Shown here piece by piece: positions 3,001-9,000 of a DNA stretch of 49,396 nt. This DNA comes from a virus (taxonomy: Duplodnaviria > Heunggongvirae > Uroviricota > Caudoviricetes), in the IMG/VR virus record IMGVR_UViG_2582580752_000019, one strand, 5' to 3'. A program made the position numbers. Within the stretch, counting starts at the first letter, position 1. The number at the start of each line of letters is the position of its first letter.

Positions 3001-6000
3001 CGATGGAACGCCCAAGCGTAACGATCGTGCGTACATCGTGGTCATTCCAGTATGCCCACGGGCAGATTTGTCCTGCTCGCTCATAAGCTCCACGTAAAAT
3101 TACGTTGTCGAAGGTGGCTCCGTTACCCCAGACTTTTAAATATTTCGTATTGTCTGCGTGCCGGTTAATGAAATGATTTAGTTCTGAGAGAGCATCGCGG
3201 ATCGACAAAGTATCATCAATACAGATTGCAGCTCGTGCTTCAGGGCTTTGTTTCAACCACCACAGGATGGTATCGCCGTCAGGTGTAGCTCCTTGCCCCA
3301 TAGCACTTTCCAGGCTAACAACCGTATAGAATTCTTGTCCGATGTCTCCGGTTTCTGGAGTGAAGAACACCGCGCCAATGGAAACGATCGGTGCATCCTT
3401 ATTTTTCCCCATCGTCTCAAGGTCGATCATTAAGTTATTCATTACTTCACCTCCTGCGTTTCTTTGCTGCTGTGAATTCGCCAGTTACCGACGCCTTCCC
3501 ATTCAAACTGGCGGTTACTAATTCGCGTCCAGCCCCTGCCGAAAAGCAAATCCAGATACCAGTATTTTAAAGTTCTGATAATTGCTCTTACAGTTGGTTT
3601 GCATCCAGAAGTCTTTGATGCGCAAATAAAGCACCGAGTTATGCTCATGGCCTCTACAAAAGGCCAGATAAACCAAACCCAGATGCAAAGAGCCACGAAC
3701 AACATGAGCGCGATGTTAGCCACTAAGCCAGAACAGTACAGATAATTACTCACTGGTTGCCTCTTTCATAAAAATAATCCAGTTGGTTTTATCGTTTTTT
3801 CCTGTTCGTTGACCGATAACAGGTTTTCTGTCTGTCAGTGCCAAAATCTGGCTTACCGGTATTTGCGTTTCATTCCATTTAAAAACCAGAACACCGTTTG
3901 GCCACAACACACGAAAGGCTTCTTTAAATCCCTGCCGCAAATCATCACGCCAGGTATCTTTATTCAGCCGTCCATATTTCTTTCCCATCCAGGCGTTATC
4001 ACCAACACGCTCAAGATGCGGAGGGTCGAATACAACAACCGGAAACGATGCGTCTGCAAATGGTAATGCACGAAAATCTGCTATCAGGTCAGGGCTAATT
4101 ATCAGGCGTCGTCCATCACATAATGTGTGCTCTTCCTTTCTGATGTCGCTAAATATCGCCCGGTCGTCATTCTTATCGAACCAGAACATGCGACTGCCAC
4201 AGCACATGTCGAGGATTGCTGCATGTCCAGTCACTGGTTGCCTCCTTTGCGAATCTGCTCCGCCCATTCTTCAAGGGATTTCTCCGCATATTCACCGGAC
4301 AGGCCATCAATCGGATGCGGTTCATTAGCTAACTCTTCTTTCGCTGACAGAATCATGCGCGTAACGTCGAAAACTTCACGTAAAGACTTATTGATAAATC
4401 CGTGGTTGAAAGCAGCAGCAAGACGACTTGCGGTATAGTTAATTCCCTCGTTGCGAGCCTCCGCACGAATTTCAGCCAGAAAAGCATCGGTGGCTGGAAT
4501 TTGCGGCATACCTCCGCCTGCTGCGCAGATATACGCATCAGATATTTCATCCTGCTCGCCATTAAACACATAGCAACTCTGTACGATAAATTTATTCAGC
4601 CGCGCATTCTCCGCCGCCAGCGTCTCGTATTTAGCTTCAAGCGCGTCGAACTTACGTACTAGGTACTCAGCATTTGTTTCGTTCACTTTCAGATCTCGCG
4701 GTACACATTTCCCGCGAAGAAACCCTTCCATTTCGAAAACATTCATGCGCATTTGCGTAACTCCGATAACTCGTTAAAACGTTCCATAAACATCCCGTAG
4801 GCATGGCCTGGTGACAGTGGAATAACTTTGAACATCTCTGTTGCCGGGATGCCTTCCAGTACAGGCCAGAAAGAGCCATCATCAAGCCCGAGATCGCGGC
4901 GTTCGGTTGCCAGCATAATGAGATCGGCATATTTCACTGGCGTGCTCATAACAGGAGGTAACCCGTATTTTTCACGGATTACGGTGTCTATTTTTTCTTC
5001 CATCCGTTTATAGTCAGGAAGAAGTCGTTTCAGTGGCGCGGGGATGTCCTGGCAATATGCTTCTGTTGCATCATGCATTAACGCTTCAAAAGCAAATTCC
5101 TGCGGTACCAGCTGGCTGCAAAGCACCGCATGTTGGGCGACGCTGTAGAAGTGTGAAAGATGGCCGGCAAAGCGACACATTGAGGTGTACTGGCAATAGC
5201 GGACACTACCATTTGTTCTTTTTTTAAGCAGCCATCTGATGATATTTTTCCCTGAAGGCTGCCGGGGAGATATTCCCCAGACGAGAGTGACGACGCTGAC
5301 GATTGTAGAAAATCTCAATGTATTCCCGTATTACTGAGATGGCTTCATCCCGGTTATTAAAACGATAGTGGCTCAGGCTCTCATTTTTCAGCGTTCCCCA
5401 GAAGCTTTCCATCGGAGCGTTGTCGTAACAGTTACCTTTACGCGACATTGATGTTTTCAGACCAAACTGCTCCTGTATGACCCGGTAATCGTATGCGCAG
5501 TACTGTGAACCTCGATCAGAGTGGTGGATTAGCCCGGCAGGTGGGCGCTGGCTCCTGAGCGCCATAAACAGAGCTTTACCTGTCAGCTCTTTTGTCATGC
5601 GCTCTCCCATGGCGTAGCCGACAATTTCGCACGTATAAACATCTTTGATGCCAGCGAGGTACAACCATCCCTCCTGTGTGGCAACATACGTCAGGTCCGC
5701 CACCCAGACCTGATTTGGTGCTGTAGGAGCGAACGTCTGGTTCAGCAGATTTGGCGCAACTGGCAGATTGTGGTTCGAGTTCGTAGTCGCTCTGAACTTG
5801 CGTTTCTGCTTACAGCGTAGCCTTAGCTCCTTACGAAGACGTGCCAGTCGGTCACGACCAACGATGATGCCATTCTCTGCCAGCTCCGTCTGGAGCCGCC
5901 GGGTTCCATATGTTTCGCGAGTGCGGATATGTGCCACCTTAATCTCCAGTTTTAGCCGCTCATCACTTTGTTTTCTGTCTGAGGGTTCATGCTGTACCCA

Positions 6001-9000
6001 GTTGTAATAACCGCTCCTGGATACACCAAATACCTGACACATCGCTTCAATGGGAAATTGTTGTCGCCATTGTTCGATTAACGCGTATTTTTCAGCGACT
6101 CCTGTGCAAAATACGCTGTTGCTTTTTTTAATATATCTCGCTCAAGGCGAGCTTCATTTAACGCCTTACGCAGTTGCAGAATTTCAGATTCCAGTTCAGC
6201 CACCGTGCGGGAACCAGGAGTACCGAGCCCTTTTCTGGCGGCGGTAACCCATTGTCCTAAAGTGCCTTCAGGAAGAGATAATCGGGAAGCGCCTTCACTG
6301 ATCGAAAGTTGATTTTCAAGAACCGTTCTGACAGCTTCGGCTTTGAACTCTTTAGAGTAACGTTGGGTTTTTCTGCTCATTATTAGCTCCTTCTGATGCC
6401 ATTCTATTTCAGGAAGGAGTGTCCGTTAAACTCAGGCTACCTCACATATTTGAAAGGGAAACCGCGATATCGTTAATAACGATGTCATCTTTATTTATCT
6501 TGTCATAATAAAAATGCTTCCCGGAAAAAGTTTTAATAAATGACATTTCGTTCTCCACTTTATATGCGCTGCACCGCGCTGAATTCGGGTAAAAGGAATC
6601 CCGCACCATCCGGCGATTATTGAGTTAATTACGTTTCCATAAATGCCCCCGCAGGGGCATTTGCAGTAATGAAATCAGGCGGTGAAAGTACCAATAAAAG
6701 TTTCTACTTTGCTGTCTTTGAATTTCTCAACAAGCAGATCACGAAATTCGTTAGCCATTTCTTCCTGCACTGCTTCCAGCTGAATAATGCGCAGAACCAG
6801 TACAGGACGATCGCCAGTGATAATGCTGAGGCGTAATTTAAACGGACGTTCTTTCAGGCCTTCAAACGGAACGCATTTAAATTCACATGCCACTGGCATA
6901 ATGTCTTTGGTCTTCGCTTCGACAGACTCCATCAGGGAGCGTTTGCCGCTGAAGTCATTATCTTCAAAATCAGCGGTCTGGTTTGCTTCAATCGTGATTT
7001 TACGGACAGCCGCAGCCGCTTTTGTTGCCTGAATGGCGTCACCATTAGCATCAAAGCCCACAAGGTAGTCGGCCCAGTCTTCAATCCATTCTGCCAGTGA
7101 CTTCTGGGAGTTACGCTCGCCGTTAACAGACAACAGGGCAGAGAACGGTGCTGTCTTTTTCAGTTTGAGAGTGGCGGTGTTATCTGCGTGACCTGGTTCA
7201 TCGATAGTACCCAGGTTAAGTACACTGACGGCACGCATATTATCGGCGTCGATAAAGCAGCGGGTGCCTTCATCTGCAAGATCTTTAGAATAACGGGTAA
7301 AATCATCGATGCTGGCAGTCGAAAGTGCACCACGGAAACGGAAGCGATTTAAATTAAATTTTTCCAGATCATGAATGCGGAAATTCTCAGGCAATGCCAC
7401 AGCATCGGCACCAATCTTACTGATAATTTCATTAACACCCTGAGCAGAAATAAGGGCATGAATTTGATTAATTGCGGTTGCGTCTAAGTTCTGAGACATA
7501 ATAAGTCCTCACTATATAAAGATATTCAGTGATGAGATAAATAATCGGTTAATTAAGAACGATATTAATTACCTGCTGCGCGGAGTTTTCCGTCAGGTTC
7601 ACCGGCAAGAGTCAGTAATTGTCCCTGGTCTTCCTGCAGAATAGTCAGGCGACCACCGCGATTGACATACATCGGCGTTTCGGTGGTGTCTTCTTCGGAA
7701 ATTTTCCCGCGGTTAGTCGGGCGAACATATGAGAGTTTGTGTTTGATTTTCACACGGTTCTCATCAAACGGTTCGATTTCCAGGTTGAGCGAGACCTTAC
7801 CTTTGGTTTTCGTGTTCATCACACCGGAAGCGACTTCACTGAGAACAGCGCCGATTTTGGTTTCAAATACGCCGCCGTCCAGCTCCCCGATAAATGCCTG
7901 CACATCAGTACTGCGTTCGCTAGCCATTTTGCTGCTCCTCATCATATCGACCCTGCAAGGTCGGTTGGTTTCTCCACAAAACAGAGAAGAACACCTGCGG
8001 TGGCAGCCGCCCGGCTGGATTGGGTTATGAGCCCGTCGTCCGGTGATGCTCTTCTCTGTTTTGTAAAAAGAGCGGTACCAGCCGGAAGCAAGTGTACAAA
8101 CTGGTACCGCCAAAGCAGTGGCTGTTGTGGTGGGGTTGTCACTCAGGCGTATGGTCAACCTGACAATCCGGTGTCCTCAACGGGGAAAGAGTAACCCCGC
8201 CATACTTACCGCCGCGCCATTTCGCGGATTACCACAACGCTGAGAGCACTTAGCCAGTTACGGCACCACACTTTGTCGCGGTTCCATAAATGCCCTCATC
8301 GTTGCACCCTGGTCTCTTCCCAGGCGTCAAACCGGATCGCCGCGCTGGTTAGGCGTCTTATCAGCATCATCATTGACTTGCACATTCCGGCTACCTGGTT
8401 TTTTTGCCCGAGCAAGGAGTGGATTGTCCCCTTTAACGTCCCCAGACCGCTAACGACGCATGTGCCATACGCCGTGTTACAACCAAATTTTGTTTAATCT
8501 TGCCTGCGGCATGTTTCTTTTAGATACATTATGTATCTTGTGGGTACATTGTCAAGTATAAAAAAACCTGCCGAAGCAGGTTATAAATATTGATTAGGCC
8601 TTTATTTTGTATCTTCTTGGTTTTCCTGAGAAAATTACTGTACCAATTATAGAGCAATTACCGTTAATCTTAATGTAAGGCTCAGGCCAGTTTGGGTTTA
8701 ATGCTTTGAGATAACGCTGTGTTCCATCTTCTATCAATCGCTTGAAGGTGGTTTCGCCTGTATCGTGCATCAATGCAATAACGTCGTCACCGTGGCAGGC
8801 AGGGACTTCGGGATCAACAAAAATCATGTCTCCCGGGCGGTACTCATCAATCATTGAATCACCAATCACCCGCAAGATATAAGTCATTTCGCCACAGGGT
8901 ACAGGGCAGGGATAAGTTTCTGCTGTGCTCAAATCAACCTCAGAATAGCCAACTTCTTTCCATGCTCCGGCCTGTACCCATGATATGACAGGGACTAACG

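Follow-up and report, generated by a model that had tools for sequence, protein, structure and literature searches.

The 49,396-nucleotide stretch of viral DNA analysed here, IMG/VR record IMGVR_UViG_2582580752_000019 (in its whole length called the window), is a lambdoid prophage lying between a DUF2713 gene and dusA, with its integrase adjoining dusA. In its early-left region, the gene yfdR is interrupted by an insertion sequence (IS). An earlier interpretation based on the nucleotide sequence, referred to below as the sequence-only reading, had described an IS3-family, IS600-like element inserted in-frame into a YfdR-like HD-domain gene. The results indicate that a complete, apparently functional copy of IS600 has almost certainly transposed into yfdR of this dusA-integrated prophage in an E. 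coli of the non-O157 enterohaemorrhagic (EHEC) or Shiga toxin-producing (STEC) type. Coordinates are window positions, and the transposase genes of the element, yfdR and the early-left block are all on the - strand.

The IS600 copy and the interrupted gene

The insertion is defined by the following features.

5181-6444, - strand: complete copy of IS600, 1264 bp, boundaries read from the sequence
6418-6444, - strand: left terminal inverted repeat (IRL), transposase-proximal; the - strand begins TGAGGTAGCC
5181-5207, - strand: right terminal inverted repeat (IRR); the - strand ends ...CCAGTACACCTCA
6445-6447: target-site duplication, copy 1, CAT on the + strand and ATG on the - strand, which is codon 34 of yfdR
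5178-5180: target-site duplication, copy 2, CAT
6445-6546, - strand: 5' fragment of yfdR, codons 1-34, with its own Shine-Dalgarno sequence GGAGAA upstream, aligned by tblastn with residues 1-34 of K-12 YfdR
4743-5177, - strand: 3' fragment of yfdR, codons 35-178 and the stop codon, carrying H50 and H69-D70

The element, read directly from the sequence, spans 5181-6444 (1264 bp) and is the only IS600 copy within the window. Its terminal inverted repeats are 27 nt long and imperfect, with 19 of 27 positions matching (70% complementary) and ends TGAGGT...ACCTCA. Both the length and the TG...CA ends agree with the IS3 family (1.2-1.55 kb, imperfect terminal inverted repeats), as does the 3-bp CAT duplication, the family norm being 3-4 bp; the natural empty site has a single CAT. 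The length, the imperfect repeats and the CAT duplication given in the sequence-only reading were all borne out. Over all 1264 bp the element is 100% identical to RefSeq copies annotated 'IS3-like element IS600 family transposase', and identical annotated copies occur in many O26, O121 and other STEC genomes. In a survey set of 5426 complete E. coli genomes, an IS600 copy covering at least 80% of the element was present in 1612, at up to 43 places per genome.

Two IS copies are regarded as isoforms under the ISfinder rule when the nucleotide identity to the reference IS is at least 95%. For the present element this identity was established indirectly, through the 100% identity to the copies named by RefSeq. 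The sequence comparison thus indicates that the element is IS600 itself and not a new element, variant or mechanism; the assignment to the IS3 family stands, while the qualifier '-like' can be dropped because the sequence is identical to annotated IS600. The element shares its full sequence, TG...CA ends, orfA and orfB, A7 run, DDE domain and 3-bp duplication with IS600 of Shigella and STEC genomes (IS3 family, IS3 group), and differs in its insertion site alone, which is new relative to the 5426 complete genomes. A literature search pairing 'IS600' with '1264 bp' gave no match.

When the IS and one CAT were removed, a continuous open reading frame (ORF) of 537 nt and 178 aa was restored (MSFIKTF...SNM-CRFAGH...RKCA, the hyphen marking the insertion point), spanning 6546 to 4743. 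Five E. coli genomes, NZ_CP077567.1 among them and two labelled O111:H11, contain the IS-free join (4231-5180 plus 6448-7499, 2002 nt) at 100% identity over its full length, with a single CAT. The gene at the empty site is annotated 'yfdR: 5'-deoxynucleotidase' and is flanked by a YfdQ-family gene, and the restored ORF is the same as this intact yfdR base for base. The restored protein is also the same length (178 aa) as YfdR (b2361) of the K-12 prophage CPS-53, with 173 of 178 residues and 514 of 537 nucleotides identical. The interrupted gene, by these comparisons, is yfdR itself. The sequence-only reading had predicted that removal of the element would restore one HD-domain ORF, and had named the failure of the two flanks to join, on comparison with intact homologues, as the outcome that would count against it; instead, the flanks join exactly. 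Codon 34 of yfdR is ATG in the intact empty-site allele, and ATC in several other alleles, so that the CAT/ATG repeat is a true target duplication and not a coincidence. Given the 100% identity to IS600 and the 100% identical IS-free join, the match of features is far beyond chance.

The HD-signature residues H50 and H69-D70 are present in YfdR. The Pfam YfbR-like model scored 24.4 bits, a weak match below its cut-off of 25.9, and the NCBIfam model scored 19.8 against a cut-off of 122; the solved relative 2GZ4 aligned to residues 18-175 (E=1.4e-12). K-12 YfdR has been described as an HD-domain protein that is structurally homologous to YfbR, has far lower affinities for nucleotides than YfbR, and binds domain I of DnaA (PMC4776307, Noguchi and Katayama).

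The coding capacity of the element is summarised as follows.

6078-6380, - strand: orfA, 100 aa, helix-turn-helix protein (Pfam PF01527 HTH_Tnp_1, E=1.5e-20; N-terminal part of NCBIfam transpos_IS3)
5224-6141, - strand: orfB frame, DDE catalytic domain (Pfam rve PF00665, E=3.2e-26)
6123-6129, - strand: slippery heptamer A AAA AAA, followed by G, at IS positions 316-322 within the orfA/orfB overlap
6080-6120, - strand: stem-loop, candidate frameshift stimulator (predicted fold -13.1 kcal/mol, z=-2.1)
6401-6429, - strand: promoter-like site for the transposase, TTAACG-17-TAGAAT, partly within IRL (predicted, 9/12 consensus match)

The ORF of orfB from ATG to stop is 6042-5224 (272 aa), in a frame that is open from 6141, and scored 334.7 bits with NCBIfam transpos_IS3 against a cut-off of 160. 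It is in the -1 phase relative to orfA (IS frames: orfA 1, orfB 0), and the two overlap from IS position 304, where the orfB frame opens, to 367, the end of orfA. The A7 frameshift site noted in the sequence-only reading lies within this overlap. The conceptual OrfAB fusion (6380 to 6123, then 6123 to 5224) is 385 aa, the same size as the product of the RefSeq 1157-nt 'programmed frameshift' coding sequence of IS600, with catalytic residues D229, D289 and E325; 35 residues separate the second D from the E, giving DD(35)E. The stem-loop begins about 5 nt 3' of the slippery run and terminates just before the orfA stop codon, and by analogy with the IS3-family paradigm is a candidate frameshift stimulator. 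A search of Rfam over 4000-9500 found no frameshift element or other RNA family, the sole match being at chance level. Masking of the orfA Shine-Dalgarno sequence in a read-through transcript was also considered and set aside: a CUCCUUC/GAAGGAG pair is formed in the minimum free energy fold, yet z=-0.63 relative to shuffled sequences, so that such masking would be speculation.

Effect on yfdR and the early-left operon

The insertion point lies exactly between codons 34 and 35 of yfdR, the duplicated triplet being codon 34 (ATG). The first triplet of the IS, at the start of IRL, is TGA in the yfdR frame, so the expected product is a 34-aa stub. Moreover, the IS and duplication together amount to 1267 nt, which is not a multiple of 3, and the term 'in-frame' consequently has no functional meaning. 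The insertion described as in-frame in the sequence-only reading does fall at a codon boundary (34/35), but the frame is not read through, given this length and the immediate TGA. Because 2GZ4 aligns from residue 18 onward, the break at residue 34 falls within the conserved domain.

In the proposed mechanism, IS600 would have inserted between codons 34 and 35, duplicating the 3-bp target ATG. According to the IS3-family paradigm, the OrfAB DDE transposase would arise when ribosomes slip into the -1 frame at A AAA AAA G, and movement of the element would follow a copy-out/paste-in route via a circular intermediate. Translation of yfdR would stop at the IS-borne TGA to give the 34-aa stub, and the 144-codon remainder would be left with neither a ribosome-binding site nor the first conserved helix of the fold. 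From the structure of the locus, yfdR is predicted to be knocked out by the insertion.

The neighbouring genes and regulatory sites are listed below.

4231-4752, - strand: next gene downstream, 173 aa, whose start overlaps the yfdR stop (ATGCGCATGA)
6675-7499, - strand: yfdQ (DUF2303; Pfam PF10065, E=4.6e-91), 98.9% identical to K-12 YfdQ by tblastn
7565-7927, - strand: yfdP, 98.3% identical to K-12 YfdP by tblastn
8510-8555, - strand: pL-like promoter and operator-like repeats, TTGACA-16-CATAAT, 8555 to 8528 (predicted, 11/12 match to sigma-70)
8594-9268: repressor gene of the LexA/S24 type, with repeats on both sides

The genes yfdP and yfdQ lie directly upstream of yfdR, in the leftward order yfdP-yfdQ-yfdR on the same strand, and the transposase genes of IS600 are co-directional with yfdR and this early-left operon. 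Four 20-nt operator-like repeats were found, two at 8510-8549 under the pL-like promoter and two at 9301-9353 in the cI-cro gap. This layout is that expected of pL/OL and pR/OR, and no terminator-like site was predicted on the - strand between 8528 and 2552. The placement of the insertion inside a pL-driven operon in the sequence-only reading is supported at the consensus level, by the 11/12 promoter match and by overlapping operator-like repeats that recur at the cI-cro gap.

Since the start of the downstream gene overlaps the yfdR stop, translation of the two genes is probably coupled, and that of the downstream gene is probably lowered by the insertion. No intrinsic-terminator-like site was predicted on the - strand inside the IS, which makes transcriptional read-through from pL plausible; transcription from pL through the IS is probably still possible, and polarity on the genes downstream is plausible.

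The 'CPS-53-like flavour' ascribed to this operon was also apparent on comparison with K-12. Besides the nearly identical YfdR, the window shares the yfdP-yfdQ-yfdR order with CPS-53, and homologues of yfdN, yfdM and part of yfdO are situated in the right arm of the prophage. In CPS-53, by contrast, yfdR is intact and is followed by yfdS and yfdT, whereas the window keeps 41 aa of yfdS and has no yfdT, and CPS-53 is integrated at argW while the window prophage is at dusA. The downstream ORF (4231-4752) is a mosaic: its N-terminal 41 aa match K-12 YfdS at 100% identity, and the other ~130 aa are unrelated; its relatives are annotated by RefSeq as 'ead/Ea22-like' or as a partial pseudogene. The immunity region (8132-10068), with the repressor, a cro-like gene and the operators, is wholly unlike that of the O111:H11 empty-site prophage, while sequence identity in its flanks is at least 99% to the left and 95% to the right, a pattern typical of lambdoid immunity-module mosaicism.

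Distribution of the insertion and its explanation

The two junctions can be represented by 40-mers, GTTTCCCTTTCAAATATGTGAGGTAGCCTGAGTTTAACGG and its partner at 5161-5200. The exact occupied junction was found in none of the 5426 complete E. coli genomes, and the exact-junction 40-mer had no match among the GTDB species representatives. Five records covered at least 80% of a 2101-nt query, and all were rejected, each having been pieced from 3 separate segments with spans inconsistent with this insertion; in the two that were inspected, IS600 was located elsewhere, near an intact yfdR. A look-up of the 145-aa product starting at M34 matched 5 contigs. A Logan contig (SRR20736765) was excluded as an instance of the same insertion, the site being empty and the 5' breakpoint different. 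This contig, from another related prophage, begins with an unrelated stretch of 30 nt (positions 1-30) in place of the yfdR sequence upstream of window position 6508 (codon ~13); a search for this 30-mer found no identity. It may mark a further independent breakpoint in yfdR, the third. The last base of the draft contig GCA_050853535.1 corresponds to window position 5180, exactly the IS boundary, as would be the case if an IS were inserted there too.

The gene itself was present in 2969 of the 5426 genomes, and in 2946 of these (>99%) a copy covered at least 80% of its length. There is no general tendency to lose yfdR, and its disruption is rare.

The closest complete genome is that of the O145:NM strain FWSEC0002 (NZ_CP031919.1), which has the same prophage at the same chromosomal site, 100% identical to window positions 1-4840 and 6443-18071. 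The insertion site of the window is empty in FWSEC0002, but yfdR of that strain is interrupted by an identical IS600 at another position (13173-14688 of a compared NZ_CP031919.1 segment, corresponding to window 4841-5180). This second copy follows yfdR nt 156 and is oppositely oriented; it is not flanked by a target duplication, and 283 bp next to it (window 4841-5123) are deleted. Its junction was likewise unique to one genome. The two insertions are separate recent events, that of the window being strain-specific. This interpretation agrees with the high activity reported for IS600 in non-O157 EHEC, and with reports that the IS-excision enhancer (IEE) removes IS3-family elements and brings about deletions (PMC5567499; PMC9397093). 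The FWSEC0002 prophage has, in addition, an extra IS3-family element (with an AL1L pseudoknot) and ISEc20 (IS110 family), at the places corresponding to window positions ~18069 and ~23036 and spanning 380-1593 and 5114-6310 of the compared FWSEC0002 segments; both are absent from the window, so that the IS content differs at at least 3 sites between near-identical prophages. In two other STEC prophages, IS600 (3045-4201 and 3044-4200 in the numbering of the two compared segments) is situated farther downstream in the same early-left operon and yfdR is intact, which suggests that the early-left region is frequently hit by IS600.

A close parallel is the lacZ::IS600 insertion of STEC O121:H19, also a simple gene-inactivating insertion at a 3-nt target, the target length used by IS600, in an IEE-carrying STEC background, and potentially reversible through IEE-mediated excision (PMC9397093). 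The two cases differ: the IS in lacZ is transcribed against the direction of the operon and visibly delays lactose use, whereas here the element is co-directional with the prophage early operon.

No result contradicted the identity or structure of the element, and the insertion is most likely neutral for the host because yfdR, an accessory gene of the prophage, is silent in the repressed state. A quite different view is that the insertion was selected or is regulatory, either because loss of YfdR benefits the lysogen or because IS600 and IEE constitute a reversible switch, the repeated hits on yfdR then reflecting selection or a hotspot. The FWSEC0002 event, with its 100% identical flanks but different position and orientation and its 283-bp deletion, could be taken in its favour, as could the possible third breakpoint in the Logan contig; YfdR binds DnaA domain I (PMC4776307) and, with its neighbours, inhibits replication initiation, and excision of IS600 by IEE reactivates lacZ (PMC9397093). 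This view is nevertheless improbable to a high degree, since yfdR is intact in more than 99% of the genomes that carry it, each IS600 junction is private to one strain, the insertions elsewhere in the same operon beside an intact yfdR fit a generally high activity of IS600, and deletion of the gene set had no significant effect on the regulation of replication at 37 C (PMC4776307). A more specific version, to which very little credence can be given, is that the hits (two in one otherwise identical O145 prophage, and perhaps a third) are non-random and reflect selection against, or IEE-reversible switching of, the DnaA-binding YfdR; on induction, transcription into the IS, co-directional with pL, might couple the SOS response to excision and to restoration of yfdR.

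Two further alternatives to a simple inactivating insertion of IS600 concern the remains of the gene and the assembly. A C-terminal fragment of 145 residues might still be made, from the duplicated ATG or as a fusion, and keep the HD-domain or DnaA-binding activity. Through the duplication, codon 35 is immediately preceded by an ATG; the yfdR frame is open for 47 codons back into the IS, giving a 191-codon ORF (5318-4743), and the motif residues H50 and H69-D70 are all downstream of the insertion. Such a product is very unlikely, however, since the duplicated ATG has no Shine-Dalgarno sequence in front of it, and promoter prediction gave no - strand promoter-like site facing outward at IRR, and an outward hybrid promoter there was rejected. 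The fragment would also be devoid of residues 18-34, which align with 2GZ4, and the 191-aa ORF has a TTG start; on look-up, neither it, the 34-aa stub nor a 55-aa upstream-extended ORF corresponded to a recorded gene. An assembly error, in which an IS600 copy, collapsed as a repeat or misplaced, was joined into yfdR, can be considered because the element is multicopy in such genomes, at up to 43 places, and the exact junction occurs in no other complete genome. The chance of this artefact is negligible: a misjoin would not be expected to yield complete canonical ends together with an exact duplication of the 3 bp that occur once in the empty site, and an independent draft contig (GCA_050853535.1) stops exactly at the IS boundary. 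Two considerations do weigh against the account of a complete IS600 in a pL-driven operon, namely that the name IS600 rests on the RefSeq annotation of identical copies, and that the assignments of promoters, operators, terminators and the hairpin are predictions from consensus matches or folding energies.

The insertion is an ordinary strain-level IS600 insertion that makes a prophage accessory gene a pseudogene, an event already known in kind. In annotating the locus, yfdR should be marked as a pseudogene, and the mobile element entered as IS600 together with the target duplication. The case is a further instance of small-scale diversification of EHEC prophages by IS600, and strains could be typed by the patterns of IS600, the IS3-family element and ISEc20, which differ between prophages with identical flanks. 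What remains mildly interesting is that yfdR was hit twice in a single prophage lineage; if selection or switching were the true explanation, it would bear on the interference of prophage YfdR with DnaA.

Other features of the prophage

Several differences from FWSEC0002 were observed outside the early-left region. In the window, two ORFs (38676-40184 and 40181-41662) stand in place of a single tail-tip/host-specificity gene J, the frame being shifted by the lack of ~487 bp that are present in FWSEC0002 (23757-24244 of a compared segment); the prophage may be unable to make functional tails. The portal region (27434-29856) consists of two overlapping ORFs, 27434-28798 and 28795-29856. The FWSEC0002 portal is annotated 'portal protein, frameshifted' and aligns with the window without gaps, and the frameshift is therefore common to both. 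In the tape-measure gene, the segment at 33907-34042 is 134 nt in the window compared with 57 nt in FWSEC0002; the ORF (32832-36074) is intact in the window, and the FWSEC0002 gene is annotated as frameshifted.

The type III secretion system (T3SS) effector gene nleG7 and an espS-like effector gene are found near the right end of the prophage. Three phage-borne tRNA genes are located at 17286-17537, upstream of the late region: one with a CAT anticodon (Met according to ARAGORN, Ile in RefSeq), Arg-TCG and Arg-TCT.

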